From a virus: a DNA stretch of 64,000 nucleotides. Of the stretch, positions 5,249-46,284 are shown one piece after another. The stretch is from IMG/VR virus record IMGVR_UViG_3300021492_000072, one strand, 5' to 3'. Numbering within the stretch: the stretch's first letter is position 1; each line of letters begins with the position of its first letter. The translations under genes and the position numbers were made by a program. Below the pieces are notes generated by a model, which saw only the letters and a list, made by a program, of their open reading frames with translations, did no database searches and had not been told where the DNA came from.

Positions 5249-5276
5249 ACCACATCTCCTCCTTCACAAAGGTCAC

Positions 5277-6293: not shown

Positions 6294-6320
6294 AGCTTCT
6301 CTCTCTTTCAGTTTCTCTTA

Positions 6321-6611
6321 CTACCTTATCTTAATCTCGTACCTACCGCGTCCCTTTGAAACTACCTCTACTGTGTAAGAAGGCGCGACACCGCCCGGAC
6401 GCACCAACTTGAACTTAGGACAATATGCTAAGTACTCTATAGTGTCATTCTCATATTTGTAGCTCGCGTCCAGGATAATAAAGTTAGAGAACACCAACAT
6501 AAGCACCCCAAGCAACTCAGAGTTCTCATTACCTATAGCTAAATCCAACATCCTTTTACTGATTTCAAATTTGCCTAACCTCCGACCTTTAGGTTCTCTC
6601 TGACCTGCCAC
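6321..6611 (-). CDS. Hypothetical phage protein
   Basis: Operon tiling. Confidence 0.7.
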   Translation of the reverse strand: MAGQREPKGRRLGKFEISKRMLDLAIGNENSELLGVLMLVFSNFIILDASYKYENDTIEYLAYCPKFKLVRPGGVAPSYTVEVVSKGRGRYEIKIR

Positions 6612-6646
6612 TATAACACCCCCTATTTTACCACAAACTCAGCTAC

Positions 6647-6844
6647 CTAATAATAAATCTCTACCACTTTCCCATTTTCGTACACGACCGCTGCTTCGCT
6701 ACACCTTACCTCAAACCAAGGCTCGTCTTCATCCTTCCCCTTTAACTTTATTTCCCACCACGGTTCTTCGTCTGTGGGGGTAGACACAAGTACTTCATCT
6801 CCGTCACCCCAATCTCTACCGTAAAAAAGCGCTCTTCCAAGCAT
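6647..6844 (-). CDS. Hypothetical acidic protein
   Basis: SD GAGGAGG. Confidence 0.65.
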   Translation of the reverse strand: MLGRALFYGRDWGDGDEVLVSTPTDEEPWWEIKLKGKDEDEPWFEVRCSEAAVVYENGKVVEIYY

Positions 6845-6859
6845 TGATCTATACCTCCT

Positions 6860-7063
6860 CTATTTTATCCTCCTCACAAATAACACACACCCACGTCCAA
6901 GAGGAATCAACTTCATCTGCCCTGGCTCAAGTGGCAGTATGTCTTTCTCTTCCACCCCCAACGCTCCAAGGTGATCCCGGTCACACATCCGACGGAGACT
7001 AATTCGAGGTTGGTGTGCGATGCACACCCCGCCTGGGGACAGAATCTTTGACTGAAGCAACAC
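6860..7063 (-). CDS. Hypothetical protein
   Basis: SD GGAGG. Confidence 0.55.
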   Translation of the reverse strand: MLLQSKILSPGGVCIAHQPRISLRRMCDRDHLGALGVEEKDILPLEPGQMKLIPLGRGCVLFVRRIK

Positions 7064-7112
7064 TAAAGGTACCTCCTTCTCAAAACCAACTTATCAAAAA
7101 CCGCTAAACATT

Positions 7113-7775
7113 TTAGCGTATCAAGCGCTTCCATGCTGTTACACCAACACGAAGCTTCCACAATCTACCCTTAGGGGAGGTCTTTATAGCACGAATAACA
7201 TCAGTTAACACCTTCTGCCGCAGTCTCCCTTTCCGAGCCGACATCGTAATAACCACCCCACCCCTTGATAGCCTTACGATCGTAGGGATGCCATCAACAA
7301 TCATGACTTCAGCGCGTACGTCTCCATATCTACCACAAACCCCAAAAGCGGGACCAAGGCTAGATTCGGGTCCGCGAACTATGTGAAGGTCGTTAAGTTC
7401 AAAAGAATTATATAACACATCCAAACGCAAAGCCGCCTTTGAATTACAGAGTTGAGAAGCAACTCCTTGAACGAAACCCTCCAATTCAGACGCTACAACG
7501 TCACGGAACGCCTGTAAAACGCGACCGATCCGCTTTCCCTTTATAAAGTTAAGCTCACTCGGTGCGTCAATTATCCGACCATTCTGGTTGAACGGACTTT
7601 TTATCACAAACTCAAAGGGGTGAAAGATCCATCTCGAACCCCTGTTGGACAGGAGTTCCTTCACCTCTTCCACTGTTGAGGCCTCGAAATCGGTCACATA
7701 GTCTCCCTCAAAACTAACCAATAATGCCTGATACACCTCACAAACCCCTTTGCGACAGTTAACGGTGATAATCAA
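7113..7775 (-). CDS. Hypothetical protein; C-terminal half belongs to the SPxGRLW family
   Basis: KVLTDVIRAIKTSPKGRLWKL. Confidence 0.7.
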   Translation of the reverse strand: MIITVNCRKGVCEVYQALLVSFEGDYVTDFEASTVEEVKELLSNRGSRWIFHPFEFVIKSPFNQNGRIIDAPSELNFIKGKRIGRVLQAFRDVVASELEGFVQGVASQLCNSKAALRLDVLYNSFELNDLHIVRGPESSLGPAFGVCGRYGDVRAEVMIVDGIPTIVRLSRGGVVITMSARKGRLRQKVLTDVIRAIKTSPKGRLWKLRVGVTAWKRLIR

Positions 7776-8319
7776 CCGTAACCAAATACCCAGTAGTTAT
7801 ACCCCTCTCCTCTAAAGTCTTCTTCACATAGCCGTCAAAGCCGGTCCTACAAAAGCCGAAACCAGTCCAAATCTCATGGTGAAGAACCTCGTTCGGAAGA
7901 ATTAGTGTATAACACGTCAGTCGCGATGATACCCTCCCAACAGAAACAACATCATCAGCGTAACCATCATCCCTGTACCTATCACGACAAGTCGGTATAA
8001 GCCCCTCGAAACCTGGGAAAAGTTTCAAGAACTCTTCACGCCTCTTGGCCTCCTGAACCTTTTTCGGATTCTTAGCCCCATACCAAAACAATCTCTTCTC
8101 TTCGCAAATCTTGTAAAACTTTTCAATCTTCGACGGATCCAGTGTCGTTACTGTATGAACACCAGACCACTGACCGCCAACAACAAACCAATCCCAAAAA
8201 CCATGGCGCTCACCGGTTGCCTCATCGAACCACAGTTTGTAAGGTTCCATGATCCTCAAAACAGCTTCAAACACATCTTTAGGTAATCCTTCAAGGTAAA
8301 CCTCGCAATGATAATGCAT
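7759..8319 (-). CDS. Hypothetical phage protein (WDWxxxGGxW...VDYH type)
   Basis: WDWFVVGGQWSG and terminal VDYH. Confidence 0.75.
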   Translation of the reverse strand: MHYHCEVYLEGLPKDVFEAVLRIMEPYKLWFDEATGERHGFWDWFVVGGQWSGVHTVTTLDPSKIEKFYKICEEKRLFWYGAKNPKKVQEAKRREEFLKLFPGFEGLIPTCRDRYRDDGYADDVVSVGRVSSRLTCYTLILPNEVLHHEIWTGFGFCRTGFDGYVKKTLEERGITTGYLVTVDYHR

Positions 8320-8375
8320 CCAAAAACCTCTCTCTACAGTTCTTCAACTAAATACACCCTAAAAAGACACCCACC

Positions 8376-8546
8376 TTACGACACATGCTTGTCATCTTTA
8401 AGGTTAGAACACTTACTTAACATGACCCGAAACGCTCGTTCATACTCCCTCAACATCCTCTCTGAAGCAGTATGAGTAATGACAGCTCCAATGAAAACAC
8501 CTAACCCAAAACAACACAGCCCAACTACTAACAATTGTACCCCCAT
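8376..8546 (-). CDS. Small membrane protein (56 aa)
   Basis: Manual translation MGVQLLVVGLCCFGLGVFIGAVIT...; GGAGGTG SD. Confidence 0.55.
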   Translation of the reverse strand: MGVQLLVVGLCCFGLGVFIGAVITHTASERMLREYERAFRVMLSKCSNLKDDKHVS

Positions 8547-8561
8547 AAGATCACCTCCTTA

Positions 8562-8765
8562 CTATTCAGACCCACTTACCTTCAAATCGGGGAAGTCGGT
8601 TATCACTGAATCTACCACTGCTCTCATCTCTTCTTGGTTCAAGATAACTTGTGGGTTGTTCCTCGCCAGGTCCCGCTCTGCCTCATTATCGTCATCATAG
8701 TAGCCACTTTCTACCCATACATGACATTCATACCAATTAATAGCGTAGTACTTCTTCTTCTTCAT
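8562..8765 (-). CDS. Hypothetical protein (start moved to MKKKKYY)
   Basis: GGAGGAGGAG SD before ATG 8765. Confidence 0.65.
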   Translation of the reverse strand: MKKKKYYAINWYECHVWVESGYYDDDNEAERDLARNNPQVILNQEEMRAVVDSVITDFPDLKVSGSE

Positions 8766-8779
8766 CTCTCCTCCTCCTC

Positions 8780-9703
8780 CTACCACACATGATGCGGCCA
8801 CCTTATAACCCAACCATCATGTACGTAGTAATTGAACCTTAATAATAAGTCAAAGAAATCTCGAGCTAAAATATACTTCCAATACGCCGGTAACTCTGTT
8901 GACACAGTTGATTGTACGAGTGAGCGAAGGGGAAAACTCGCGACACGCATCTCTACTAACTCACTCTTAGTCATACCAAAAATCACTCTCATTACACCAC
9001 TTGGATAATGAAGGAGCTTAAAATCGATTGGGCGAAACTGAATCTCTCTAGATAAGTCAACTTGTGGTAGTGATTTAACAAGGCCCTCAAAAGCCTTCAC
9101 CAAATCTTCTTCAACTAGGACCCCCGCGTAAGGGCCAATATGGATTTTACGAACAATCGGATCAGAAATAATCCTAAACTCCCGCGTCTGAACCGCGAGC
9201 CGTAAGTTGAGCGCGGCCTTACCGACTTCAGAGTTCGTAATCACCAACGAAGGGGCAAACGTAACATTCATCTCGCACCGTTGTACCCCCTCAATTCGCA
9301 TAATTGAAAACTCATCGGTCAACATCTCCCAAACAGGGTCTGTCACCTTACCGAAAACCTTACTCAACTTAAGGTGAGGGAGCAACTCGCGACAAACAAC
9401 AATGTTATCAATTGGTTTATAACTCGTCGAAAGAACACCTCTAACTGTCTGCTCACGTAACCTCAACAAAAACTGAGTCTCCTTCAACACCCTATTTATT
9501 ACTTCACATAAGCCCTCTTCCTTTAGAATTTCAAAGAACTTCACAGTACAACCCGCAAAAGAGCACAATTGCGACGTCGCAGTATCATTCAAGGTTAAAG
9601 GTCCATTAGGATACACTATACCTCCACTACTATCCAATTTAAGAGAAGCGGTCACGTCCCTACATCCCTTCGTGAATTCCTCTACTTGACTAAGGAAGTC
9701 CAT
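8780..9703 (-). CDS. DUF932-like protein
   Basis: SQLC, LLRLR..VRGVLSTSYKPIDN, ITNSEVG motifs. Confidence 0.65.
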   Translation of the reverse strand: MDFLSQVEEFTKGCRDVTASLKLDSSGGIVYPNGPLTLNDTATSQLCSFAGCTVKFFEILKEEGLCEVINRVLKETQFLLRLREQTVRGVLSTSYKPIDNIVVCRELLPHLKLSKVFGKVTDPVWEMLTDEFSIMRIEGVQRCEMNVTFAPSLVITNSEVGKAALNLRLAVQTREFRIISDPIVRKIHIGPYAGVLVEEDLVKAFEGLVKSLPQVDLSREIQFRPIDFKLLHYPSGVMRVIFGMTKSELVEMRVASFPLRSLVQSTVSTELPAYWKYILARDFFDLLLRFNYYVHDGWVIRWPHHVW

Positions 9704-9725
9704 AGCCTACCTCCTTCTTGATCCT

Positions 9726-10142
9726 CTACGTATAGTTCAACCATTTGGGTGGCACTGTGTGCAACCCAAACCAGTACACCCACTTACCGTTACACACATG
9801 AGTGTAGTAAACCGTCGCGTACTCACCAACTCTGCCTAGTACTACCCATACATACTCTTGACCATGGTCCTCTGGGGGCCAAACTGGAGGCACAAGATCA
9901 ATGTCACCCCGTGGACATTCGTCCATTAGCCTCCGTACTAGAATAGCCGCTAGCTCCTCCATACCGTTAAACATCAACCGGTTTTCGCTTCCAACAGGGA
10001 TCCCATTCTCAATTGGTATTCCCAACAAGATTGACTTCAAATCCTCCCCATGACTACTCGGGTCTCCATCAAACTGTCTAGAAACACAAACAATCGGTCT
10101 GCGTTTCTCATCAAACACGTAAGTTAAACATTTCGTACCCAT
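9726..10142 (-). CDS. Hypothetical protein, tandem duplicate of 10199..10621 (start at MGTKC)
   Basis: Near-identical protein and DNA to its neighbour. Confidence 0.75.
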   Translation of the reverse strand: MGTKCLTYVFDEKRRPIVCVSRQFDGDPSSHGEDLKSILLGIPIENGIPVGSENRLMFNGMEELAAILVRRLMDECPRGDIDLVPPVWPPEDHGQEYVWVVLGRVGEYATVYYTHVCNGKWVYWFGLHTVPPKWLNYT

Positions 10143-10198
10143 TTCACACTCCTTCAAACCCTCATCACTACATTCATCAAAGTCGTGCACAACGCGCT

Positions 10199-10621
10199 CT
10201 AAATAGTAAATAGGAACCCCCGCCGAGCTAAGTCCACTTGAGGGCCAAACCAGTGATGCCATTTAATGTTACACGCATGAGTATAGTAAACTGTCGCGCA
10301 TTCACCAACCCTACCCAATACCACCCATATGTAATCTTGACCGTAATCCTCTGGAGGCCAGACCGGAGGCACAAGGTAAACATTTCCGCGGGGATTTTGG
10401 TCTTTTAACCTGTACACCAACAGAGCCGCCAGTTCTTCCATACCATTAAACAACAAACGATTCTTTTTTCCTAATGGGAGCCCGTCCACGATCGGGATTC
10501 CCGACAAGATCAACTTCAAGTCTTCTCCATGACCTTCGGGGTATCCATCAAACCGTCTGAGAACGCAAACGATTGGTTTACATTCTTCATCAAACACGTA
10601 AGTCAGGCATTTCGTCCCCAT
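10199..10621 (-). CDS. Hypothetical phage protein (DGYP..G..L / NGM..LAA family)
   Basis: Paralogs at 9726 and 33354. Confidence 0.8.
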   Translation of the reverse strand: MGTKCLTYVFDEECKPIVCVLRRFDGYPEGHGEDLKLILSGIPIVDGLPLGKKNRLLFNGMEELAALLVYRLKDQNPRGNVYLVPPVWPPEDYGQDYIWVVLGRVGECATVYYTHACNIKWHHWFGPQVDLARRGFLFTI

Positions 10622-10659
10622 CTTTCCATACTCCCTCTTCTAAACCTTAAGTGATTCCT

Positions 10660-11232
10660 TTACTTCTGACACTGACGGTAGTAAGTGCAAAATTTTTCCC
10701 ATTGTGAGACGATGGAATCCCCATACCGTATGTTAAAAAGGTACACATGCCATTGCAACTTAGCTCGATACACTACGTCCATCAAAGACAGAAGACGCGC
10801 GCCTCGAATTTTAAACGCGGTATAAGATTCAAACCCACTCCAATGAGCGCAGCGCACCCTAATAGTAACGGGATTCAAGTATGGCGGAGCTAAACGCCAC
10901 GCTTTTAGACAATCTGAGAGCGAGTTACTGAGCTTTAGTAACCGTCGTTGAGGTGTATTTATGCTGCGCAACGCGTCCTTCAACTTCACGAGAGTCATGG
11001 CTCGTGTACCATATCTCTCTAGCCGAATTGAGCCACTCGTTATTGCCAGATAGGGAAACCTCACCTCAACCTCATCATCCCCAAACTTCAATTCAACCAA
11101 CACATCGTTGGGCAACCGTGTTTTAAACTGAACACACGGCGCAACACACAAAATTGTTTCCAACACAACAGCGGGATGAATTTGGGACAGGAGTGACTTT
11201 TCTACTTCGATAAGCTCGTTATGTAAACTCAT
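10660..11232 (-). CDS. Hypothetical protein, paralog of 33750..34376
   Basis: SLLSQIHPAVVLETIL shared. Confidence 0.75.
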   Translation of the reverse strand: MSLHNELIEVEKSLLSQIHPAVVLETILCVAPCVQFKTRLPNDVLVELKFGDDEVEVRFPYLAITSGSIRLERYGTRAMTLVKLKDALRSINTPQRRLLKLSNSLSDCLKAWRLAPPYLNPVTIRVRCAHWSGFESYTAFKIRGARLLSLMDVVYRAKLQWHVYLFNIRYGDSIVSQWEKFCTYYRQCQK

Positions 11233-11256
11233 ATTCTCCTCAAACCCCCACCAAGT

Positions 11257-11679
11257 TTACCAAATATGGGTTAAGAAGTGCTTAAGCCAATCTAAGTTAA
11301 CATACTCAATCGGGTAATGTGCACGAAATAAATCCAACCTCATTCCCGCTTTAGTTATGGTGTACCGCCCCCGCTTCTCTCGCACTATCAACCCAAAAAC
11401 TAATAACTTCTCAAGCGGTCGTGACGTCCACGCAAATCCGGCCCATCCACGGCTCACTAAATACCTATGGATCTCACAATGCCTTGCGGACTTCTTCCTC
11501 TTCAAGAAATGAAGCACCGCCCTAGCACGCAGATCTAGTGTGAAGCGGTTCTCCAAGAATTGCTTCTCCCAAAATTGGCGGCGACTATAACTGCCTTGTA
11601 AAACACGTTGGATGGCTTCCTTGTCGGAAGGAAACACCTGCAACCATTCCATCGCGAAGTATTTAGTAGTTGACTCCAC
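11257..11679 (-). CDS. Winged-helix DNA-binding protein (putative)
   Basis: SRPLEKLLVFGLIVREKRGRYTITKAG. Confidence 0.6.
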   Translation of the reverse strand: MESTTKYFAMEWLQVFPSDKEAIQRVLQGSYSRRQFWEKQFLENRFTLDLRARAVLHFLKRKKSARHCEIHRYLVSRGWAGFAWTSRPLEKLLVFGLIVREKRGRYTITKAGMRLDLFRAHYPIEYVNLDWLKHFLTHIW

Positions 11680-12392
11680 TACACTACCTCCTCAAGTTCA
11701 ATCAAACATCTTAAACCCTCAAGGTTCCTTTTTGTCAGTTGTATAACAGGTGCGTAGCACGGAGTAAAAGTCTCACTCCAGACCCAAAGAACACATCCAG
11801 GAGCGTACTTCAACGTGAACATATCGCTCAACGAGCGAATCACTCCCCACTCACGGTCCCCCAAAGTCACTCTGAAGCAGTAACCCAGCCGTACTAATTG
11901 AAGCGCGGCAACAATGGGTGGAACCGTAAACCAAGTAAATTTGGTCAATCCATACGCAGGGGTGTGATATATAGTCAGCTTACCTTTTATCACACGCTTT
12001 ACGACTTCAAGTTTAGTAATGAACAGCAGTCGGTAGCTAAAACACAAGTCATCACGCACCTCAAGGGGTAGACTAACATTACCAGCCTTAAACAGTGATT
12101 CAGAAAGAGATAAACCCAAACCCTTGGGGTGGTGTACCAACTTGGTCCAAAGTGCGGGTCCATCGACTACAAAAGCCCTAAAGCGATTATACACCTGGAA
12201 AAAGTCCTCCCATGACATAGGAAAGTAGTTATGCTTACATGTTTGCACAAAACGCCCACGACGCGAGGACACTGTGACGTGAGCCCGCCTCCTGAACATC
12301 GTCACCGACGCCTCAAAGTGAGGTACCGTTGATCCAGGACGTGGGCCATAACCCAACGAAACTGTTTTCAACTCCCACTTCAACCGCTTCAC
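11679..12392 (-). CDS. Hypothetical protein, paralog of 1372..2085
   Basis: See 1372..2085. Confidence 0.7.
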   Translation of the reverse strand: MKRLKWELKTVSLGYGPRPGSTVPHFEASVTMFRRRAHVTVSSRRGRFVQTCKHNYFPMSWEDFFQVYNRFRAFVVDGPALWTKLVHHPKGLGLSLSESLFKAGNVSLPLEVRDDLCFSYRLLFITKLEVVKRVIKGKLTIYHTPAYGLTKFTWFTVPPIVAALQLVRLGYCFRVTLGDREWGVIRSLSDMFTLKYAPGCVLWVWSETFTPCYAPVIQLTKRNLEGLRCLIELEEVV

Positions 12393-12406
12393 ATATTCAC
12401 CTCCTC

Positions 12407-13609
12407 TTATATCATTAAGACTCTACCAAATGGAAACTCCATCCCAATAGTGCCTGGTCCTTCAACCACCACCCAAAGTACTGAGTAAGGCGGCACCTTT
12501 TCAGGAAACGCACCGTATCCATCTGTAAAATAAACTAAAATCGCGGGATTTAAACGGCGTTCCTCAACGTTCTCGAAGACAGGACGAAAGTCCGTTCCAC
12601 CACCGCCACTAACTTTAACAGGGAACGCTGGATTATGGTAAAACTCGTGTACCTTCGCATCACAAACGTACACATATAAATCAGTAACTACCCTTTTTAG
12701 CTGTTCTAACTCTGTCATAAATTGTGTCAGCTCAGTTCGACTGATTGACCCACTTGTGTCAATCGCAGCAACAACTTGGGTTGAACACTTTTGTGATCCA
12801 GGAATCCTAATTCCATTCTTAAAACAAGTTCGAGACCATATTGGAATCCTTGTGTAAGTGAAGTATTTACTCCTTCGCCCCACAGCTGAAACTATCTTTG
12901 AACGTACATACAAAGTCCATCTCACTTTTGGAACAGCTCGATCAAACTCCCTCGCCAATCCTGCTGGTAAATCTCCCCGGCTCTTCCTCAAAGCGTCTGC
13001 GAACTCCTCTCTTGCTAACCCAGATCCTTCCAATTTCCTTCCTTCCTCAGGGCGTGAAGCAACTGAAACTCCTTTTGTACCACGTGAACTATCATGCCAT
13101 TCAACATATGAGCCAAAACCATCGTCGGGTCCCTTATCCCCCACCTGAAATGATATTCCATCAACTGTAAATTGCTTTAACCCCTTTGATAGCGCGTCAC
13201 CAATTTGGTCTACTAACCAGCGGTATACAACCTCCACCGGGCCATCGGGTGCGCGCTCAAAGAAAACTAAACCCGAGTTTTGTATTTCGTTTCGATCAGT
13301 GAACCCAATATCGGTAAGGATTTTATGTACCACATGGTCCGCGGCTAGATTCCACAGCACAGGTTGTCTCCCTTGACCTCTCTCAATATGAAGGAATGTG
13401 TGGTGCAACAGTTCATGAGCGTAAGCGATTTCCTTCATCCGCTTTGGTAACGAGGGGCGCAGATAAATATGACCCCCTTTTGTTGCACACGCGGAGGCGA
13501 ATTCTGGTAGCCCGTCTGTGTAAGCCACAGGCGCATACAACGCTATTGACACCTGCAAAGCGTTGTAAACCCGTAGTCGGATACCTGTAAAGTCAGTTGC
13601 TTGTTTCAT
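12407..13609 (-). CDS. DUF2201-type metallopeptidase-vWA protein
   Basis: AHELLHH, WNLAAD; MIDAS DTSGS, GGGGTDF, YFTDGY. Confidence 0.9.
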   Translation of the reverse strand: MKQATDFTGIRLRVYNALQVSIALYAPVAYTDGLPEFASACATKGGHIYLRPSLPKRMKEIAYAHELLHHTFLHIERGQGRQPVLWNLAADHVVHKILTDIGFTDRNEIQNSGLVFFERAPDGPVEVVYRWLVDQIGDALSKGLKQFTVDGISFQVGDKGPDDGFGSYVEWHDSSRGTKGVSVASRPEEGRKLEGSGLAREEFADALRKSRGDLPAGLAREFDRAVPKVRWTLYVRSKIVSAVGRRSKYFTYTRIPIWSRTCFKNGIRIPGSQKCSTQVVAAIDTSGSISRTELTQFMTELEQLKRVVTDLYVYVCDAKVHEFYHNPAFPVKVSGGGGTDFRPVFENVEERRLNPAILVYFTDGYGAFPEKVPPYSVLWVVVEGPGTIGMEFPFGRVLMI

Positions 13610-13632
13610 ACAAAGCCTCCTAACAAGACATT

Positions 13633-13662
13633 AAAGGGCCCTAGATTAGCTAGGGCCCCTTT
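13633..13662 (-). terminator. GC-rich hairpin between the AAA and vWA genes (terminator/processing stem)
   Basis: AAAGGGCCCTAG-ATTAG-CTAGGGCCCCTTTT. Confidence 0.5.
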
Positions 13663-14640
13663 TTACCTCCCCTCCATCTTCTTTATCAGCCCGTCTGTGA
13701 TCTTTGATAGTGTGGGGTGATCAGCCAACTTATAGATATCACCGAAGTTGAACGTCATCTCCCCCATTACATAACACATTTGAGCTTCAGCGGTTAACCT
13801 CTTCGCAACAAAATCCAAAACCTTAACGTTCGGTTTGTGCCGAGACAAAGCAGCTGCAATCACAACCTGATCTTTTACTGACTCTGGCTTCGATTTTAAC
13901 AGGTCGTTTATACTCTTACCTAAAATTGGGTAACTATCAATAAATTTAGCACCTGCGTTGACTCCAACAACCCCCACCGCTATATTAAGGTCAAATCCAG
14001 CACTCAGAACTTTGTGTAGATTAAACCAACTCCTCGGTGAATGAAACTTTTGGGAAGTAGGAGGATCAGGATCATAAAGAAACTCAGGGTATGCAATCAA
14101 GAACGCGGAGATTTTGCTGCTTACATTTCGGCTCGTCGCGTACTGAATAAAATCCTCTACTGTAGGATTAAACTCAATAGCGATGTCGAACCTGTCCATC
14201 ACAGGCGCTAATAGCTCTGACGCACCCGCGCTATGCAGAGATAGATTCCCAGCCGCAACAAATCTCGTTTCGTCGGATGTCTCGTGTCCGTGTAGACGAT
14301 GACACAAGAGCAGCTCAAACAACGGGGATTGAAGTTGTTCAGAAGCGAGATGTATGTCATCGAAGAACAATACACGCTTCCCATCAGCTGGTAACGGCAG
14401 CCAATTAGGTCGAGTCCAGTACGTTGCATCATCCCTAATGTCAGGGAGACCTTTGGCCTCGCCTGGTTCCATCAAATACAGCCGGAGTTCGTCAATAGGC
14501 ATGCCGAGTTCTGCTGCTGCTTGAGCTGTGATTTCTGACTTACCACAACCTGGCGGGCCAGAAATCAACACAGACAGGTTGTGTTCCAACGCTGTCTTCA
14601 AACACTCTTTAAGCTGTTTTCCACCACTGATCTTATACAT
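13663..14640 (-). CDS. MoxR-like AAA+ ATPase
   Basis: Walker A GPPGCGKS, Walker B LFFDD, AAGN, DRF, SPRSW; adjacent to the vWA gene. Confidence 0.9.
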   Translation of the reverse strand: MYKISGGKQLKECLKTALEHNLSVLISGPPGCGKSEITAQAAAELGMPIDELRLYLMEPGEAKGLPDIRDDATYWTRPNWLPLPADGKRVLFFDDIHLASEQLQSPLFELLLCHRLHGHETSDETRFVAAGNLSLHSAGASELLAPVMDRFDIAIEFNPTVEDFIQYATSRNVSSKISAFLIAYPEFLYDPDPPTSQKFHSPRSWFNLHKVLSAGFDLNIAVGVVGVNAGAKFIDSYPILGKSINDLLKSKPESVKDQVVIAAALSRHKPNVKVLDFVAKRLTAEAQMCYVMGEMTFNFGDIYKLADHPTLSKITDGLIKKMEGR

Positions 14641-22762: not shown

Positions 22763-23148
22763 CTTATTTTGCCCTCCATGAGGTACAAAAGGTTTCTTTC
22801 TCCTGGCGACAAACTCAACACATCTGATAACCAATCAATTAACATACCCCGTGAAGAAAATTCTGGGCACAGTTTACGAGTCGTAACCGAGTAAGTTGCC
22901 GACCTATATTTATATGCAACCTGCTTCCAATGAGGATAGATTTCCCTGAAACGTCTCCAATAAATATAGGGTTCTGGCCTAACATCAAATGAATATGCAA
23001 CTCCCAACTTAACAGGATATGGTGTCATCTTTTTAAAATCGAAAGACCACTGTAAGGGCACAAGCGACTCAACTACCTCTACTTTCCAAACACGTACACC
23101 CGGCACGGCACGCGAAAGTAAAGAGGTCAAGAAACGCGACATAGTCAT
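22747..23148 (-). CDS. Array family member 18
   Basis: Family scaffold with long loop-1 insertion. Confidence 0.85.
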   Translation of the reverse strand: MTMSRFLTSLLSRAVPGVRVWKVEVVESLVPLQWSFDFKKMTPYPVKLGVAYSFDVRPEPYIYWRRFREIYPHWKQVAYKYRSATYSVTTRKLCPEFSSRGMLIDWLSDVLSLSPGERNLLYLMEGKIRCRGC

Positions 23149-38466: not shown

Positions 38467-38784
38467 TCAGCCACGTGACACCTCATCAGGTTTGACCCGC
38501 GTGATTTGCTTGAAGACCCCTGTCCACGGTTTATCTCCTGCCTGCGAATAGCGTGCAGGCATCAAGCTCAAAGTCAGGTTCTTGACAAGCAGCTCTGCTT
38601 CCTTCTTCGGCCCTTCAAGTGAGAGCCCGAGGTTGAGACATCCCGGTCCTTCTACCAACTTGAGGCCTTTTACTTTGATGTCCTTGAAGTGTGTTTGGTT
38701 CATGATTGTCTCAGCAATCTCATGCCAGCGTGGTCTTAGGTCCTTCAACGTCGCGATCACATAAACATGTTGCTCTTCGCCCAT
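38467..38784 (-). CDS. Hypothetical early protein
   Basis: AAAGGAGG SD preceded by a perfect 11-bp hairpin. Confidence 0.7.
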   Translation of the reverse strand: MGEEQHVYVIATLKDLRPRWHEIAETIMNQTHFKDIKVKGLKLVEGPGCLNLGLSLEGPKKEAELLVKNLTLSLMPARYSQAGDKPWTGVFKQITRVKPDEVSRG

Positions 38785-38841
38785 TTGTTCCTCCTTTGGC
38801 AGACAGGGCAGTCTGTTTAGACTGCCCTGGACAGAAGGCTA

Positions 38842-39183
38842 CTACTCTTGTGCATCGTAGTAAGCCTTCTGCATTTCCGCCTTTAATGTGGACATCTTTA
38901 CTTTCTCTTGTACTCTCTTCCACAACTCAGGCTTCTCCGCTTTGAACATGAGTATGCAGACCTTTCTGAACCCAGTGGGCCCCAGTTTCTTGAAGACCTC
39001 AGGACCTTTGTCCTTGATGATACGAGCTGCCAGATCTCTCATATAAGTCGTGTGGCCCAACTGAGACTGTCCGTTCTTCTTCTCAAGCGCTGCGTCCACA
39101 AGAGACTTCAAATCCACAGTAGCTTCCTTCTCAGATTCTTTTACGTTCACAATAGATTTCTTTGCCTCCGCCATCTTCTTCAC
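38842..39183 (-). CDS. Hypothetical early protein, paralog of 43534..43842
   Basis: LK.L...AL....GQ...GH...MR.L.A.I....G.E....L.P.GF. Confidence 0.75.
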   Translation of the reverse strand: MKKMAEAKKSIVNVKESEKEATVDLKSLVDAALEKKNGQSQLGHTTYMRDLAARIIKDKGPEVFKKLGPTGFRKVCILMFKAEKPELWKRVQEKVKMSTLKAEMQKAYYDAQE

Positions 39184-39477
39184 CTCCTTTCACAGCCTTG
39201 ATTTGGACTGAAAGTCCAAGCTGTTCCAAACGTTTTAAAAAATAAAATTTTATATAAAAATAAAATTATGCCTGACTACAGGTAGTAAGAACCCCAACCG
39301 TCCAAGTACTTGTTAATCCAATAAGCTAACTCCTTATCCAGTTCTTCTACACACTCTGACATCTTATCATGCCCAAGCTCTTCCAACTTTTTACACAATA
39401 ACTTCTCTAGTGCCTGATATACCTCTTCCATCTCTTCTTCCTTTATATGCACTCTTCTTCACCTCCTCTTAGTTTGA

Positions 39478-39768
39478 CTAGATTATCCGGTCGATCTCTT
39501 CCTCAGCGATATACAGCTCATTACCTACTATGTCCACTTCTGCTTCTACATCATAAATCACATTATAGGCCCCTTTGTTGACGCTTAACACTACATTAAC
39601 TATCTTGGATCCCTCTGGTTCGTAAGTGGTCACTTGTCGATCGTCAATCACATACTTGCCTTTGAGATCCTTAAACTCATGCAACTCCAACCACCTGATG
39701 TTTCCAGTTTCACCCAGATCATCAACTGTCTTTATCTCCCTTAGTTTGTACCCTGTCACAAACGACAC
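39478..39768 (-). CDS. Hypothetical protein
   Basis: Similar to the C-terminus of 27770..28252. Confidence 0.65.
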   Translation of the reverse strand: MSFVTGYKLREIKTVDDLGETGNIRWLELHEFKDLKGKYVIDDRQVTTYEPEGSKIVNVVLSVNKGAYNVIYDVEAEVDIVGNELYIAEEEIDRII

Positions 39769-40026
39769 CTCCTAACGTTTTAAAAAATAAAAATTTATAT
39801 AAAATAAAATTAAACCTTCACAAACAAACCAGCTCTGCTTTTCCTTTCATTACCCTGCCTGGCCTCGCCAAAGCGAGACCTAGGGCAGGGTTTTGCCAAA
39901 GTAGAATTCCGGTGCTTAACTGCTTCTACTCGAAAGTTGCTCAGCTAAGTGGGCACCCCCGAGCTCAACCCCTTGATTTTATTACAGGTGTATTTTCACA
40001 TCAACCAGAAATTTCGTGCCAACCAC

Positions 40027-40371
40027 TTACTCATCTTGTCGCTGGAACAACACTTTATTAACCACTTCCACTTCAATCCGGGTGTACCGCGCTTCCGTAA
40101 TCTGATACGCTTTCTTCCGTGGGTCTAACTTACCCCACGACTGTTCCTTATCCTTCGCCGGTTTCGGTTCGTAAGTAATCCGATGCCTCAACCAACTATA
40201 CACCTGTCGGTACAGTTTCACTCGAGGAGTTTCCGTTAGCTCTTTCAGCTCAGCGTAGTCACAAATCACTCTAGTCCAAACACAGACTGGTTTCCCTTTC
40301 AACTTCTCTAGTAACCCAGGCTCCGCTCTCACTTCCTGCATGAACTGGTTGATGATGTCCCTGTAGTCCAC
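40027..40371 (-). CDS. Hypothetical early protein
   Basis: Hairpin plus SD upstream. Confidence 0.7.
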   Translation of the reverse strand: MDYRDIINQFMQEVRAEPGLLEKLKGKPVCVWTRVICDYAELKELTETPRVKLYRQVYSWLRHRITYEPKPAKDKEQSWGKLDPRKKAYQITEARYTRIEVEVVNKVLFQRQDE

Positions 40372-40434
40372 TTTCTCTCACCTCCTTTCCAGCCCCTGAT
40401 TAGGGACCAAATGGTTCCCGAGCTGAATGGTATC

Positions 40435-40674
40435 CTACCAACTTCCATACCTAATAAGTCCTCGATTATACAGCGACACTATTCTTTCTTTCAGTATTGG
40501 ACGTATCTTTTCCCACTGTTCATCTGGCACCTCAGAATAATCCCAACACCAGCATCCGAAAACGCGACTTTTCGCTTCCTTGAGAGGTAGACCTGTACCT
40601 TTGATGACGTCCGCAATTAAGTCTCCTGGTCTAGGATGACCTGGTGGGCAGTCCAGCTCTATCGTTTTCGGCAT
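40435..40674 (-). CDS. Hypothetical early protein
   Basis: Hairpin plus SD; ELDCPPG..RP..IRYGSW. Confidence 0.7.
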   Translation of the reverse strand: MPKTIELDCPPGHPRPGDLIADVIKGTGLPLKEAKSRVFGCWCWDYSEVPDEQWEKIRPILKERIVSLYNRGLIRYGSW

Positions 40675-40773
40675 CTCCTCTCACCTCCTTTCTGGGCCCA
40701 AATTGGAACCTCTTGGGTCCTAGGCCCATTGTATATAGTTCCTTATAGGAACTATAACGTTGCTCAATCCCCT

Positions 40774-41178
40774 CTAAGCGGGTCTCTTTATTAGTTTGAT
40801 CATATAGGTATAACCTCTTTCCCATTTGTTAACCGGTTCCTCCTTTACTAATGTCCATCCTCTGCACTCTAGTAAATCGAAGAACTCTCTCCATACTCCA
40901 ACTCCGCTCCTCTCATCACCATAGCAGTGAACCTGTAAAACCGCGCCAACCTTACATACTCTATCCACCTCACGCGCCAACTTCACACGCGCGATTTTGT
41001 CTAACACTATCAATAGTTGCCCTATGTAAACCTCATCAGTAGATTCATCCTCAACCGGAATCCGATCAGGACACCTCCACTCCACGACTCCGTCATACTT
41101 CTCGCAGTCCAAATGAATCCAGTCTGGAGTGTCCTCTACCCAATATTCTTTTGGTCCCGAACCTAGATCGAGCTTCAT
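40774..41178 (-). CDS. Class I SAM-methyltransferase-like protein (short)
   Basis: LDLGSG motif I; IPVEDESTDEV; EVDRVCKVGAVL. Confidence 0.6.
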   Translation of the reverse strand: MKLDLGSGPKEYWVEDTPDWIHLDCEKYDGVVEWRCPDRIPVEDESTDEVYIGQLLIVLDKIARVKLAREVDRVCKVGAVLQVHCYGDERSGVGVWREFFDLLECRGWTLVKEEPVNKWERGYTYMIKLIKRPA

Positions 41179-41219
41179 TCCCTCACCTCCTTTCCAGCCT
41201 TAGATTAGGACCTTTGGTC

Positions 41220-41651
41220 CTAGGCTGTTAAGTCCATTCTAATATGTGTTGTACTCAAATCCGAATCCAAATGTAACTGAAACGTCACTCTCTTCACCTG
41301 TTCCGGTTTTACACGTTTGACATACAGCCCATAACCAGTACGTATTTCAATACTATACCTGTCAAGTACTGCTGCTAACGGTTTATCACTCCAGTCAATC
41401 TTTTGCTCCTCAGGCGGAAGTTGTTCTAGTATTTCACTACCATCGTCGCAATCGAAGTAGACTTCTGTAGGCTCAACCTCAAACTCTACTACCCAAGAAG
41501 GTTCATTTAGTAGTGGGAACTCAATTGCTGAAACGAGTACAGCATCATGTCCGTTAGCAGTATCAGAACTAGGCGATACCCCATCTTTCAGGATCTGTTG
41601 TAGGCTCATCATAGAACATGGTACAGTTGTGAACAACCTCACATTACTCAC
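41220..41651 (-). CDS. Possible ADP-ribosyltransferase-fold protein (degenerate)
   Basis: RLFTT..LQQILKDGVSP..VLVS..VVEFEV..VKPEQV resembles KptA/ART-like spacing but lacks the first His. Confidence 0.35.
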   Translation of the reverse strand: MSNVRLFTTVPCSMMSLQQILKDGVSPSSDTANGHDAVLVSAIEFPLLNEPSWVVEFEVEPTEVYFDCDDGSEILEQLPPEEQKIDWSDKPLAAVLDRYSIEIRTGYGLYVKRVKPEQVKRVTFQLHLDSDLSTTHIRMDLTA

Positions 41652-41793
41652 CTCCTCTCTGACCTCTTTAAGAACGTGACCGTTATTACCCTACGATCTC
41701 TGAAGAACCAAACCATGAAGTAATGCACGTTCTTAATGCCTACAACTACCGGACCGATTTCTTGGTATTTCTCTAACATCTTTTCACCTCCTT

Positions 41794-42051
41794 TCAAATC
41801 GGCATTACTCCAACCTTTATGATCCTTTTAGGCCGGAGCAGGACCGCTCTTACCTTCACAAAATTATTGTTATCCAACCAGTACCTCTCTTCGAAACTCT
41901 TCACTACGTGCCCATGAACCTCATAGAGGTCCACGTCCTCGCCATACCACTGCTCCTGTACCACCCTCGCTTCCTCTAATGTACTGGTACAGAGCAAGGT
42001 ACCGTTATAGGCTCGTAGTGGCGAGCCCGATTCTTGCACCCTAAACGGCAT
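41794..42051 (-). CDS. Hypothetical early protein
   Basis: SD GGAGG. Confidence 0.6.
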   Translation of the reverse strand: MPFRVQESGSPLRAYNGTLLCTSTLEEARVVQEQWYGEDVDLYEVHGHVVKSFEERYWLDNNNFVKVRAVLLRPKRIIKVGVMPI

Positions 42052-42061
42052 ACTTCCTCCT

Positions 42062-42319
42062 TCACTTCTCCTTTACTCGTCTCCATGATTCAATCGGGTC
42101 CTTTACTACCAACCTGGCCCTCCCTGGGCACTGCTCGAAGAACTTTACTGCTTCTTCCAACCCATCTTCGCTTCCATCCGTGAAGTTCTCTACTTTCTGG
42201 ACCCCGTCTTTAATGTAGAAAACCGACGCGACCACTTCCTCAATCCGGATTGGAGCGCATTCGGGGCATATCTCCGCCCAATCCGGAACCGGTTTTCCAC
42301 ATTTCTTACACTTCTTCAT
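42062..42319 (-). CDS. Zn-ribbon early protein
   Basis: CKKC..CPEC. Confidence 0.65.
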   Translation of the reverse strand: MKKCKKCGKPVPDWAEICPECAPIRIEEVVASVFYIKDGVQKVENFTDGSEDGLEEAVKFFEQCPGRARLVVKDPIESWRRVKEK

Positions 42320-42369
42320 CTCCTCACCCCCTTTCGTGGCTCAGATTCTTTTACCGGAGCCACAACGGT

Positions 42370-42894
42370 TTATTCATTTCCATACAATAGACTCTCTATT
42401 ACCTCTAGTGTTCCAACGTCCACTTCAGAATCAGGTTTATCTTTCCAGTCGCAAGTGAATTCACCCCATCTCTGATACATATCCCCGATTCTAGTTCCCG
42501 GTAGTACTCTCGGTTCCTCTTTCCTCCTTGGACGCCCTCTTTTCTTTCCTTTGAGGGCTTCCACGATCAGCTTTCCTAACGGGTCTTTCATGTCGATGTT
42601 CAACTCTTCCTTCGGTGTCTCTTTCGGTCTCATGTTCAATACTTCCAACGCGCCCCAGATACCGAAGTTCTGTATGAACTGCAACCTCATCATCCGCTTC
42701 GTCCTTCCTCTGAACCGAATCCTTTGAACCGGTCCCAATGGCCACCTCGACTTGGAAGCCTTCGTTTCTAAGGCCTCCTCAATCAGGTCAGCAAGGTCAG
42801 GTTCCATTGTAGGTGCAGGCTCAGGTTCCAGCTCGACGATTACTTTGAATTCTCTGCCGTCTTTCTTTCGAATTAAGTATTCCTGGCGCTCCAT
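42370..42894 (-). CDS. Hypothetical early protein with AT-hook-like KRGRPR
   Basis: KKRGRPRRK; internal repeat L..LI.EAL. Confidence 0.65.
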   Translation of the reverse strand: MERQEYLIRKKDGREFKVIVELEPEPAPTMEPDLADLIEEALETKASKSRWPLGPVQRIRFRGRTKRMMRLQFIQNFGIWGALEVLNMRPKETPKEELNIDMKDPLGKLIVEALKGKKRGRPRRKEEPRVLPGTRIGDMYQRWGEFTCDWKDKPDSEVDVGTLEVIESLLYGNE

Positions 42895-43116
42895 CCTTCT
42901 TTCACCTCCTTTCTGGCCCTAGATTAGACCTCAATAGTCCTGGGCCAGTTTCAGTCCTCTTTAGACTTTAACCAATCCAGTCTCAGTTCATAGACTGTAG
43001 TATCATTCTCCACTAGACAAGAACCTCCGTGAATGAACACGATTTCTCCTTCCACCCCATTATAATGGTCATCAGGGTGGCCTACAACAATAACCCTATC
43101 ACCTACTTTAAAGCCT

Positions 43117-43410
43117 TCATTCATCTTCCTCCATCTCCTCCTCTTCTTCTATACCAGTCTCGATCCCGAACATTGACACAACCCAATCACGTGCTTCCAA
43201 GGACGCGCAGTCGAGATCACTAAGGCTCTTGACGCAAACTTTTGATGACTCAGTGGTTCTCTGATAGATCAGGTTGTCGATTACGAAACCCTTCTTACCG
43301 AAGAAGAGCCGCGCGCTGATTCGCTCCCCTCGTGTGGTCTCAACACCTATATCTACGGCGTGAGTACCCTCGAAGGGGCCATCACCCGCTTCTATGAACC
43401 TTAACATCAT
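43117..43410 (-). CDS. Hypothetical early protein with acidic tail
   Basis: Hairpin plus SD upstream. Confidence 0.65.
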   Translation of the reverse strand: MMLRFIEAGDGPFEGTHAVDIGVETTRGERISARLFFGKKGFVIDNLIYQRTTESSKVCVKSLSDLDCASLEARDWVVSMFGIETGIEEEEEMEEDE

Positions 43411-43533
43411 CTTCCTCCACCTCCTTTCTGACCCTAGATTGGCCTGGATGGGCCTGGGCCAGTCGCAATCCCCTTTAACGGGTCATTCTTTGTTGGGCCC
43501 CTTTACCTTTCCCCACCGGGGCCCGAGGTGGGG

Positions 43534-43842
43534 TTATTTGGCTCTAGTGTCTATCCAGATCTTGTTGACCTTGTCGTACTGGAAGCCGTGGGAGTTCTTG
43601 TAGGCGTTTAACTGGCAGGCAAACTCATGAGAGTTGCCTACCTTCCCCACTAGGTCAGGGTGGACCGCCGCGAAGATCATCTTAAACCCCGCGGGGCGGA
43701 GTTGTCGGATGATCTCTCTGCCGTGCTCGCGCTCGATCTTAGCCAACAAGGCCCGCATGGCCGAAATGTGGCCTCCGCCTTGGCCTTGTTGCTGGTCGAG
43801 AGCCTGACTGATGAGTTCTTTCAGGTTTGACATCTTCTTCAC
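43534..43842 (-). CDS. First gene of the leftward block, paralog of 38842..39183
   Basis: See 38842..39183. Confidence 0.75.
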   Translation of the reverse strand: MKKMSNLKELISQALDQQQGQGGGHISAMRALLAKIEREHGREIIRQLRPAGFKMIFAAVHPDLVGKVGNSHEFACQLNAYKNSHGFQYDKVNKIWIDTRAK

Positions 43843-43894
43843 CTCCTTCCTGCCCTGATTGGCCTAGACTGAGATCCAGGCCTGGGCTAGTCTG

Positions 43895-44290
43895 TCTCTT
43901 ATCTGACTTCTTACTTTTATATTTATTTTTATTTAATTTAATTTTAATATATTTTCGCTTAGTACGCGTTAACCGAGCTGTTAGAAAAAGTCACGTTAAG
44001 GAACCAATACGCGTTAACCGATACGCGCTAAGAGAGCCGTTAGTCACGTTCGCGCATGAGCCTGTTACGTTCTATCAGCTAAGTCACGCCCAAATAGTAC
44101 GCCTACAAATAACAAATTGGTACGCTTAGAAACTACCAGTCACACAATTCCGTAACTAGGCAAAAAGCACGTTCACAATAAAATCAAGGGTTTGAGGTCG
44201 AATGGCGTCTATAAGGTTGGCCAACTTTTGAGTAGAAAGGGTTAGTCACGCAAAAATTCCATAAGGAGTAAGACTTGACATTGGGTATGA
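43895..44290. other. Non-coding divergence region with AT tract and short repeats
   Basis: TACGCGTTAACCGA x2 (43963, 44008); AGTCAC x5 (43989, 44042, 44082, 44138, 44244). Confidence 0.6.
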
Positions 44291-44294
44291 GTAA

Positions 44295-45317
44295 ATGGAA
44301 AAGTGTGGTATGGTTGTAAAGGTAAAGAACGAAGATAGGTTCTTCGATTCTCTAGCTAAATACCTGTTCTTCAAAGAGTTAAAAAGAGCATACGAGATCA
44401 AGGTTGATGAAAAAGGACGTCCTATTACATTTATTACTAAAAGAGTCAAAGGTAGGCTTAGACACATCCCAATCCCGTTAGAAAGGTTAAGAGAGGAAAA
44501 GCTAAGTGATGCTGGTAAAAGATTGATTGAGATGAATACTATGAGATTGGTAGGACAAAGTGCTAAGATAAACGAGGGTGGGAAGAGCTTTCTCAGGATT
44601 GGAATGAAAGATTTAATAGGTGCGTTGAGTTTTGAAGGAAAGATAGGATCCAGGTTGAGTGAGGTCTGTAAAGCACCGGGAGCGATGGCGTGTGCTGCTA
44701 ATATGATAGGACTGGATTCGTATGATGTGCGTAAGGTGGAATTAAAGAAGGGAGGTAATATAGATTTAGATGCCAAGATATGGAAAGGTGACGTTTCATT
44801 AGGTTTTGTAGGAAGTATTGAGAAAGAAAAAGATAAGTTGGTGATGTATCCTAGGAGGTTGGAGAAGGTTAAAGGTGGTGATGTGGATTGGGCTAAAAGA
44901 GTAGCGCGGGTGTTTAAGAGGAGTGGAGTAGATGAGGTTAAGGTAGCTGCTAGGGGAAAGGCGGATCATGTGTTATTTAGCATGCTGGGGGCGGAGTTTG
45001 AGAATCCAAGAGAGGCGAAGTTATTCACTGCGCTGGCTGTTAGTAAGTTAAAGGGAATGAAATTAGCCCGTGAGTGGCAAGTAAAGAAAATCATGATAAC
45101 TCTAGCGAAAGAACAAACGCAAAGTTTACCCAGGATTTTGGAAATATTTAGAGATACAATGTTCCCTAGAAGGCCGGGGTTCCCCACTACTGGAGAGGCG
45201 CCAGGTACTTATAAAGACTTCAAAAGGCTGTTAGAGTTAATATTCGGCAAGGGAGTCAGCAAGTACAGAATCCCTATGAAGGGAAATAAGCTATTAGACC
45301 TTTTGGTGAGAGGTTAA
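44295..45317 (+). CDS. Basic protein with tag-like FITKRVKGRLRHIPI and a possible degenerate GNAT domain
   Basis: 340-aa ORF; ARVFKRSGVDEVKVAA..FSMLGAEF resembles the GNAT C-terminal pattern. Confidence 0.7.
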   Translation: MEKCGMVVKVKNEDRFFDSLAKYLFFKELKRAYEIKVDEKGRPITFITKRVKGRLRHIPIPLERLREEKLSDAGKRLIEMNTMRLVGQSAKINEGGKSFLRIGMKDLIGALSFEGKIGSRLSEVCKAPGAMACAANMIGLDSYDVRKVELKKGGNIDLDAKIWKGDVSLGFVGSIEKEKDKLVMYPRRLEKVKGGDVDWAKRVARVFKRSGVDEVKVAARGKADHVLFSMLGAEFENPREAKLFTALAVSKLKGMKLAREWQVKKIMITLAKEQTQSLPRILEIFRDTMFPRRPGFPTTGEAPGTYKDFKRLLELIFGKGVSKYRIPMKGNKLLDLLVRG

Positions 45318-45318
45318 G

Positions 45319-46284
45319 GTGTTAGAGTTTATACCACTTAGGAATAGGCAAGGTAAACTATTCTGGATACATGTATCGGAGTTTGAGCCGTGGAGGATTA
45401 AAGATCCCAAGACGTTACAACATATTCTGAACTTATACTTTGGATCCATTACGGTGGATAAGCTGGGAAGGTCTATGCTCACCAGTGATGGTTACGTCTT
45501 TCTGAAAGAAACCTTACCTGATTACCTCTGGAACGAAATAAAGCGTAAGAAGTACAAAAATACTATTGAGGTCTTTAGAGAGGCATCTCATCATCCAAAG
45601 GCTATACACCAGCTTGCTAATGCAATGGGTGATGTTTCCTACTTATCCGACTTCGCGATTAGGAAGGACTACATATTTGCCGAAGGTGGGATGCGTAGGT
45701 TATATAAGGCGGGGATTAGAATCCCATTTGAACCTTTATCCCCAAAATGGATGGTGAGTTCACAGGTTCCAAGAGTTCCAGTGGTCTTTGGGCCCAAGCT
45801 ATTTGGCAGAGAGATGTCAGGAAAGCACCTACAAAAGATATATCACAATTTACTGGTTGAGAGTGGACAAAAGGCTTTTATTGTCAGGCCAGGTCCGAGT
45901 AGTTTCATCACATATGCGAAGCTGGGTGCGAATTATCCAACTAAGAGCGGTAGGAAGTCGCTTGTAAAAGAGATGCAGAGATTAATCCCATACATACGTA
46001 AGTCCGGGCAAGAAAGGGAAACTGATATGCTCATGCATGTTTTAGAAAGATGGAGTGAGGGGGCGGATAATCTACAAAAGCTATATAGGGACACCTTGGA
46101 GTTGGTCAAAAAGAAGGAAATACCAGTTAGTTTGTTCCAGAGGTTTTGGTACCGAATGAGCGCCTTCGAACGTGAACTAAAGTTAGAGATAACCCCCGCT
46201 GTAAAACGTATGTTAAAAGAGGGTACTGTTTCATTCAGTGTAAAACGTTGGTTACGCGCGCCATCTAGTACGCGGTTTCAATAG
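45319..46284 (+). CDS. Hypothetical protein with possible degenerate GNAT domain
   Basis: ESGQKAFIVRPGPSSFITYAKLGANY; start uncertain. Confidence 0.65.
   Translation: MLEFIPLRNRQGKLFWIHVSEFEPWRIKDPKTLQHILNLYFGSITVDKLGRSMLTSDGYVFLKETLPDYLWNEIKRKKYKNTIEVFREASHHPKAIHQLANAMGDVSYLSDFAIRKDYIFAEGGMRRLYKAGIRIPFEPLSPKWMVSSQVPRVPVVFGPKLFGREMSGKHLQKIYHNLLVESGQKAFIVRPGPSSFITYAKLGANYPTKSGRKSLVKEMQRLIPYIRKSGQERETDMLMHVLERWSEGADNLQKLYRDTLELVKKKEIPVSLFQRFWYRMSAFERELKLEITPAVKRMLKEGTVSFSVKRWLRAPSSTRFQ

Follow-up and report, generated by a model that had tools for sequence, protein, structure and literature searches.

A covarying bulged hairpin beside the ribosome-binding sites of small-gene cassettes in an uncultured hydrothermal-sediment phage

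In phages T7 and SP82 the early genes are punctuated by RNase III sites, stems that contain internal loops and receive a single cut on the downstream side (PMC1935012). The passage of PMC7509114 that cites Hue 1995 describes the ribosome-binding site (RBS) of SP82 as stabilising its own mRNA, and ribosomes bound to a strong Shine-Dalgarno (SD) sequence block RNase J1 (PMC5737220). Another repeated module, PeSL (promoter-early stem-loop) of the T4-type phages, is defined by a sigma-70-like promoter and a transcription-terminating stem-loop (PMC2839356, PMC4122927). In T4, RegA sites, which are unstructured, A/U-rich and overlap the AUG, and RegB sites, which are cut inside GGAG, act in the translation-initiation regions of many early-type genes (PMC3014915). 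Here we describe a hairpin element that recurs eight times in a 64-kb stretch of DNA (hereafter the window) from IMG/VR record IMGVR_UViG_3300021492_000072, which derives from an uncultured 131-kb phage of hydrothermal sediment. The element is a genuine RNA structure, strand-specific, supported by covariation and fixed beside the SD; it forms a new RNA family and a putative variation on phage intercistronic punctuation.

The eight copies, E1 to E8, span positions 39181-43892 and all lie on the minus strand (Table 1; coordinates are those of the window and element sequences are quoted in mRNA sense). They belong to a small-gene arm that runs leftward, the genes at 36-44 kb being all on the minus strand. 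The common plan is a 5-8 bp outer stem around an inner hairpin with a 4-9 bp stem and a 3-6 nt loop. On the 5' side, 0-1 unpaired nt separate the outer and inner stems; on the 3' side there is a bulge, AAUC(U/A)(A/G), followed by the 3' strand of the outer stem, 1-3 nt, AGGAGGUG and the start codon. The initial annotation had described eight bulged hairpins with a fixed AAUC(U)A bulge and a fixed position next to the SD. All eight are present where it placed them, and in the copies of the window AGGAGG follows the end of the stem at a distance of 1-3 nt (8 nt by one scored SD match). The bulge and the bulged shape hold for most copies, whereas E3 has AAUU in place of AAUC and E5 has no inner stem, its AAUC lying inside a 14-nt loop.

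Every copy folds alone into the shape described for it. Single-sequence minimum free energies (MFE) range from -12 to -21 kcal/mol, and comparison with dinucleotide shuffles gives z-scores of -1.8 to -4.6, negative in all eight. Over the 45 nt upstream of the SD, the mean fold is -17.0 kcal/mol for the element-bearing genes versus -7.3 +/- 5.0 kcal/mol for 51 other GGAGG-led genes of the window (Mann-Whitney p = 4e-5). A G/A-A-A (GAA) spacer occupying -4 to -2 relative to AGGAGG sets the element apart; at the 51 other SDs only the A at -1 is conserved. In E4, the UAG stop codon of the upstream gene falls inside the 5' half of the hairpin.

A covariance model (R1) was built from 16 copies, and scans with this model and with exact patterns over the window and related contigs gave 95 matches representing 51 distinct sequences. 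The relatives in this set are 11 metagenome contigs (L042, L049, L054, L083, L085, L111, L124, L134, L139, L146 and L153) and one contig of a 2.5-Mb metagenome-assembled genome (MAG), G001; the 95 model matches include overlapping loci of one contig. Plain MAFFT alignment followed by RNAalifold gave no structure, owing to register shifts, and a model-based alignment was used instead. On this alignment, pairing is kept in 81% of the pairing cells versus 73% in shuffles, 68 cells are changed on both sides versus 27.5 +/- 6.6, and the covariation score is 0.299 versus 0.198, with none of 500 shuffles reaching the observed value of any of the three. When the 3' partner is shifted by one column, pairing falls to 56-57%. 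The stems vary with their pairing preserved, as the initial annotation had stated.

Parsing sequence by sequence gives 40 two-stem copies, which use 30 different outer stems and 26 different inner stems around a constant bulge, AAUC[UCA][AG]; the outer stems measure 3-9 bp, mostly 6-7, and the inner ones 4-9 bp, mostly 5-6. The hairpin loops vary freely, and the G-C pairs that flank the bulge are conserved. Changes between orthologs are compensatory: E2 differs from its ortholog in G002, a related 131-kb IMG/VR record at 96% identity, at three stem positions, and all three differences keep or improve pairing. Among the stem pairs 39 are G.U and none is A.C, which argues that selection acts on a fold of the mRNA-sense strand and not on a duplex-DNA operator.

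The element is restricted in its distribution. On the window, R1 finds exactly eight element matches (29-61 bits), and the next-best match, at 17 bits, is to an SD alone. G002 has eight matches of at least 22 bits, all in one cluster at 63.5-68.2 kb, and a ninth, weak match (20 bits) at 22947-22982, and the nine matches in G001 all lie on one 29.9-kb contig. A descriptor scan that did not require an SD found no credible free-standing copies, returning 3 weak non-SD matches versus 4.3 expected by chance. In a comparison with Rfam, proposed earlier as a check, no part of the window reached a gathering threshold and no match at E <= 1 was credible; the element is uncatalogued. The best sub-threshold matches in 38700-44300 were CRISPR-DR8 (25 bits versus 39 needed; opposite strand and offset) and the L31-Firmicutes leader (22 bits versus 33 needed). 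The 5-kb region had no Megablast match among 50,697 phage records, nor did R1 find one at E <= 1 in the host-takeover module of SPO1 (SPO1 positions 1-14000). The TerL-flanking loci of relatives at 58-59% identity (L029, L031, L033 and L034), which differ in gene order and whose small-gene arms lie outside the coverage, gave SD-level matches only. An exact-pattern scan of IMG/VR returned a near-identical contig and one chance match inside a gene. In the same scan of genome contigs the G001 contig was the sole true match among 75 stretches, and the many matches in a Parasphingorhabdus MAG were rejected because they did not score with the model.

Other hairpins were seen near SDs. A possible degenerate single-stem copy, 39 kb away at 343-411 (minus strand), consists of GGUCC, an 11-nt A/U-rich loop and GGGCC, then AGAAGGAGGUAAG, and scores 13 bits (E 0.15) with the model. 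Within the small-gene array at 17-28 kb, a different stable hairpin at about 24236 (minus strand) ends 4 nt before an SD; it has an MFE of -21 kcal/mol over the upstream 45 nt and no match to the model. Two contigs of more distant relatives with f0 homologs, L241 and L244, have varied hairpins before their SDs. A two-stem hairpin at L241:423-470 (CAGCC / AGGUCC...GGACCU / UAA / GGCUG) has a UAA bulge and lies 23 nt upstream of the SD, and L241:1-40 carries a 3' half, ...UCUAAGGCUG, 14 nt before the SD of f0. At L244:800-900 and 1660-1740 there are instead perfect hairpins of 15-18 bp, 15-25 nt before the SDs.

Genes were grouped into families (f0, f1 and so on) across the relatives, and the order in the window is E8-f0, E7-f13-f16, E6-f4, E5-f2-f5-f9-f7, E4-f6, E3-f19, E2-f1, AT block-f3-f10 and AT block-E1-f0'. 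A cassette comprises one element and 1-4 genes, and genes within a cassette have no element of their own and overlap or abut the preceding gene. In this way the elements split the first 4.7 kb of the leftward arm into cassettes, as had been proposed. Gene swaps at the element boundaries, which the initial annotation had suggested looking for, are seen among the relatives: whole units, namely E-f13-f16, E-f31(-f38), E-f19, E-f17 and E-f7, are present, absent or replaced. Families f7 and f17 carry their own element only where they are unchained from the upstream gene, and on L153 the element stands before two unrelated genes. One junction falls inside an element. The G001 contig is without the f19 cassette and has a hybrid element at the junction, flanked on the left by sequence that matches the region upstream of E3 (score 144) and on the right by sequence that matches the region downstream of E2 (score 147); the crossover therefore lay within the element.

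Table 1. Positions and structures of the eight elements and of the AT-rich blocks in the window
Feature	Position	Strand	Structure (mRNA sense) or setting	R1 score (bits)	z-score	Genes headed and context
E8	43840..43892	-	hairpin 43850-43890; outer CU.GCCC/GGGC.AG, 9-bp inner stem, bulge AAUCA, then GGAAGGAGGUG	38.5	-3.8	f0 (43534-43842); just downstream of AT-rich block
E7	43418..43464	-	hairpin 43428-43462; CUGGCCC/GGGUCAG, inner GGCC/GGCC, bulge AAUCUA, then AAAGGAGGUG	57.9		f13 and f16 (43117-43410, 42951-43124)
E6	42903..42950	-	hairpin 42913-42948; CUGGCCC/GGGCCAG, inner GGACU/GGUCU (two G.U pairs), bulge AAUCUA, then SD	60.7		f4 (42370-42894)
E5	42325..42368	-	hairpin 42336-42364, reduced; one 7-9 bp stem GUGGCUC/GAGCCAC, 14-nt loop ending GAAUCU, then GAAAGGGGGUG	29	-4.6	f2-f5-f9-f7 (41220-42319); reduced form kept in relatives
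E4	41184..41230	-	hairpin 41195-41227; CAGCCU/AGGCUG, inner AGGACC/GGUCCU, bulge AAUCUA, then GGAAAGGAGGUG	57.6	-4.2	f6 (40774-41178)
E3	40682..40730	-	hairpin 40693-40728; UGGGCCUA/UGGGCCCA, bulge AAUU, then SD	53.9		f19 (40435-40674); cassette missing from several relatives
E2	40379..40428	-	hairpin 40390-40426; CAGCUC/GGGCUG, inner GGGA.CC/GGUCCC, bulge UAAUCAG, then SD	55.1		f1 (40027-40371)
E1	39181..39226	-	hairpin 39192-39224; ACAGCU/GGCUGU, inner UGGACU/AGUCCA, bulge AAUCAA, then GAAAGGAGGUG	45	-3.1	f0' (38842-39183), f0 paralog; directly after AT-rich block
AT-rich promoter-like block	43900..43960	-	head of leftward arm, inside divergent intergenic region 43893-44294
AT-rich block	39230..39275	-	AAUUUUAUUUUUAUAUAAAAUUUUAUUUUUUAAAACGUU; immediately 5' of E1
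AT-rich block, second near-identical copy	39775..39815	-	runs into AGGAGGUG of f3, no hairpin			f3 (39478-39768)

The AT-rich blocks adjoin E1 and E8 alone among the elements. The near-identical blocks before E1 and f3 are 40 nt long and share a TATA-box-like pattern, AAUUUUAUUUU(U)AUAUAAA(A)UUUU(U)AUUUUUUAAAACGUU, and similar AT-rich blocks stand directly before SDs in the distant relatives L241, L242 and L243. No sigma-70 consensus was found at any element or at the AT-rich blocks, and the total found was below the shuffle expectation; the blocks are probably promoters of a type unlike that consensus. The arm is presumably early, a label that derives solely from its place beside the divergent AT-rich region. 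Between f1 and the AT-rich block of f3 there is a 210-nt non-coding gap (39816-40026, minus sense) with a strong nested hairpin (ACCCUGCCCUAGGUCUCGCUUUGGCGAGGCCAGGCAGGGU), which may be a terminator or a processing structure; the whole-gap fold has a z-score of only -1.8, and the gap has no Rfam match.

The host is probably an anaerobic bacterium. The ends of the G002 record (C1 1-15000 and 116001-131001; L239 and L240) encode a helicase, SbcC/SbcD-like proteins, the anaerobic ribonucleotide reductase NrdD and RNase HII, as well as an intein-containing protein of 667 aa and a 121-aa cell-wall hydrolase, Peptidase_M15_3. It is the hydrolase, NrdD, the SbcCD-like proteins and RNase HII that make such a host the more likely one. 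An archaeal host was considered on account of the TATA-like AT blocks and of G001, which is labelled 'uncultured archaeon', carries an archaeal EndA (108 bits) and includes the related-virus contig (C1 = CBDUMJ010000001.1; L237) as its largest. This possibility was set aside in view of the genes just named and of the element's presence in only 1 of 79 genomes of the order to which G001 belongs, and the related contig probably reached the archaeal MAG through a binning error. A 16S rRNA gene was not found in the G001 MAG, and there are no tRNAs in the window or at the ends of the G002 record. Looking up TerL in the Atlas yielded nothing about the host.

In several respects the element resembles the T7 (R0.3-R1.3) and SP82/SPO1 RNase III sites. 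It too occurs in several copies between the cistrons of one arm, the first copy lying between the promoter region and the first gene; six copies separate co-oriented genes with no promoter-like sequence, and two follow AT-rich blocks. Its two helices are separated by an unpaired region that is asymmetric and lies on the 3' side, the side of the single cut in T7 and SP82 sites (PMC1935012), and a strong SD follows closely, as in SP82, whose RBS is described in the cited passage of PMC7509114 as stabilising the message. Unlike the T7 and SP82 sites, however, the element has a total helix of 11-15 bp in the typical copy versus roughly 20 bp, short of two turns, as well as a one-sided bulge (0-1 nt on the 5' side, 6 nt on the 3' side) with a conserved AAUC and a stem fused to the SD at 1-3 nt. 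Nor is there sequence or model similarity to the host-takeover module of SPO1, a phage in which the early leaders consist of a simple 5' hairpin, about 20 conserved nt and an SD. With this geometry, no match of the model to that module and no RNase III domain in G002, membership of the T7/SP82 class with which the initial annotation had compared the element is not supported.

The other comparison made at that stage, with PeSL, fares no better as a class assignment. Both are repeated intergenic modules that end in the SD of the next gene, among small orphan genes (PMC2839356, PMC4122927), and in both the repeats bound insertions, deletions and replacements between relatives (PMC2839356). Unlike PeSL, the element is free of promoter-like sequence in six of its eight copies and of a U-tract in all of them, and its stem-loop is a specific bulged architecture with covariation. 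Like the RegA operators and RegB GGAG sites (PMC3014915), the element is an RNA signal common to the translation-initiation regions of many early-type genes and could allow their joint control, but it is a structured hairpin upstream of the SD, which neither of these is. Bulge-helix-bulge, K-turn, hammerhead and pistol cores, and an SD-sequestering switch were rejected by eye, their defining nucleotides or geometry being absent.

A conserved single-stranded tetranucleotide between covarying G-C-rich helices, with free loops and a fixed spacing to the SD, points to a specific factor acting at the translation-initiation region. The reading that ranks first, to which we assign a probability of roughly 0.4, is by analogy with T7 and SP82: the element would be a punctuation mark that processes, stabilises and insulates the message of each cassette. 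It would then be a lineage-specific, cis-acting mRNA leader module, one for each cassette that is translated independently within the arm's first 4.7 kb, with the 3'-side AAUCNR bulge and its flanking G-C pairs as the recognition surface and a strong SD 1-3 nt on. An endoribonuclease, either host RNase III or another structure-specific enzyme, would cut on the 3' side, within the bulge or beside it. A protective 3' hairpin would remain on the upstream message, and the downstream message would begin at most about 10 nt before the strong SD, where bound ribosomes would shield the new 5' end. Each cassette would thus be expressed independently of the sequence upstream of it. As a side effect, the conserved module of about 45 nt would serve as a joint for homologous recombination, through which cassettes would be gained, lost and replaced at the element.

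A number of observations weigh against punctuation by cleavage. Classical RNase III substrates extend over roughly two helical turns and are longer than the element, whose helices total 11-15 bp and are interrupted by a one-sided 6-nt bulge. No RNase III domain was found in the 131-kb relative G002; the G001 MAG, whose binning is doubtful, has a 161-aa open reading frame (ORF) with an RNase III domain alone, beside a DNA methylase. Copies of the E5 type have no inner stem, a copy before f4 in one relative (L042:4612-4658) is wholly without AAUC, and another hybrid copy, at 5 of the 95 model matches, keeps only 3 outer pairs, so the outer stem is not absolutely constrained. In the distant relative L241 the similar two-stem hairpin stands 23 nt away from the SD. 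Finally, fixed adjacency to the SD suits a translational operator equally well.

Such an operator ranks second, as a less probable alternative. A trans-acting protein of the phage or the host would bind the AAUC bulge and the G-C pairs and block the 30S subunit at the SD, so that all cassettes would be turned off or tuned jointly and downstream genes would follow by translational coupling, in the manner of RegA, MS2 coat protein or Aca2. Conservation of a single-stranded AAUC among covarying stems with free loops is in favour of an operator, and the lack of AAUC or the inner stem in some copies is against it. The constant SD spacing of 1-3 nt is likewise in its favour, as is the element's position at the head of each translation unit, including E1 and E8, which follow AT-rich blocks where separation of cistrons needs no processing, and coordinated control of early mRNAs has precedents, reviewed in PMC3014915. 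No cognate protein was found, however: of the cluster's 17 proteins, 11 were scanned and none of these matched a Pfam or PHROG family above threshold, f2 having a sub-threshold match to a zinc ribbon. Both element-bearing cassettes behind AT-rich blocks begin with genes for basic proteins that are paralogs of each other, f0 and f0' (32% identity), and a set of 1.8 billion proteins contains only 7 representatives of the f0 family. An AlphaFold model of f0 (pLDDT 83) is helical with a C-terminal beta-hairpin, and fold searches with it gave weak and mixed matches, winged-helix and FF-like (Foldseek E >= 0.76, VIA Z <= 5.8).

Third, and somewhat less probable again, is a passive insulator or 5' stabiliser that needs no dedicated enzyme. 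The hairpin would shield the SD from pairing with variable upstream sequence and halt 5'-to-3' exonucleolytic decay at its base, and portable cassettes would thereby gain expression independent of context. The most universal trait of the element, a stem of 5-9 bp that stops 2-3 nt short of the SD, which persists even where AAUC or the inner stem is missing, is consistent with this, and E1 and E8, a few nt from AT-rich blocks, would sit at or near primary 5' ends; stabilisation by 5' structures and strong SDs is known for Bacillus mRNA (PMC5737220, PMC7509114). It would leave unexplained the near-invariant AAUC, the conserved flanking G-C pairs and the element-specific GAA spacer. Last, and highly improbable, is a DNA-level recombination site, either read by a recombinase as a folded single strand (integron attC-like) or acting as a repeat that offers a patch of homology, with the RNA fold incidental: cassette indels and replacements are bounded by elements, one junction lies within an element, and the imperfect hairpin has extra-helical bases, but attC R''/R' cores (RYYYAAC / GTTRRRY) are absent from the 40 parsed copies, neither of the two divergent genes next to the arm (44295-46284) has a PHROG family match and no integrase is evident, the tight attachment to the SD and the surplus of G.U pairs relative to A.C fit selection on mRNA, and junctions in the shared core are what plain homologous recombination would give.

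It is possible, though doubtful, that the AAUC bulge, lying between two G-C-rich helices at a set distance from the SD, is the address tag of a dedicated sequence- and structure-specific RNA-binding protein or endoribonuclease that switches or cuts all cassettes of the arm at once; if so, the element would be one half of a new phage RNA-protein regulatory pair, with the tag doubling as a recombination joint. The small orphan genes at the heads of phage genomes are the fastest-evolving site of host-takeover and anti-defence functions, and how their expression is kept independent of changing neighbours is poorly understood outside T7, T4 and SP82/SPO1. Here, an uncatalogued family of 51 distinct copies links a defined fold to the RBS and marks the exact joints of cassette exchange. 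At about 45 nt, it offers a test case for whether such a connector is a cleavage site, an operator or an insulator, for separating the determinants in the bulge from those in the stem, and for use as a portable expression insulator.

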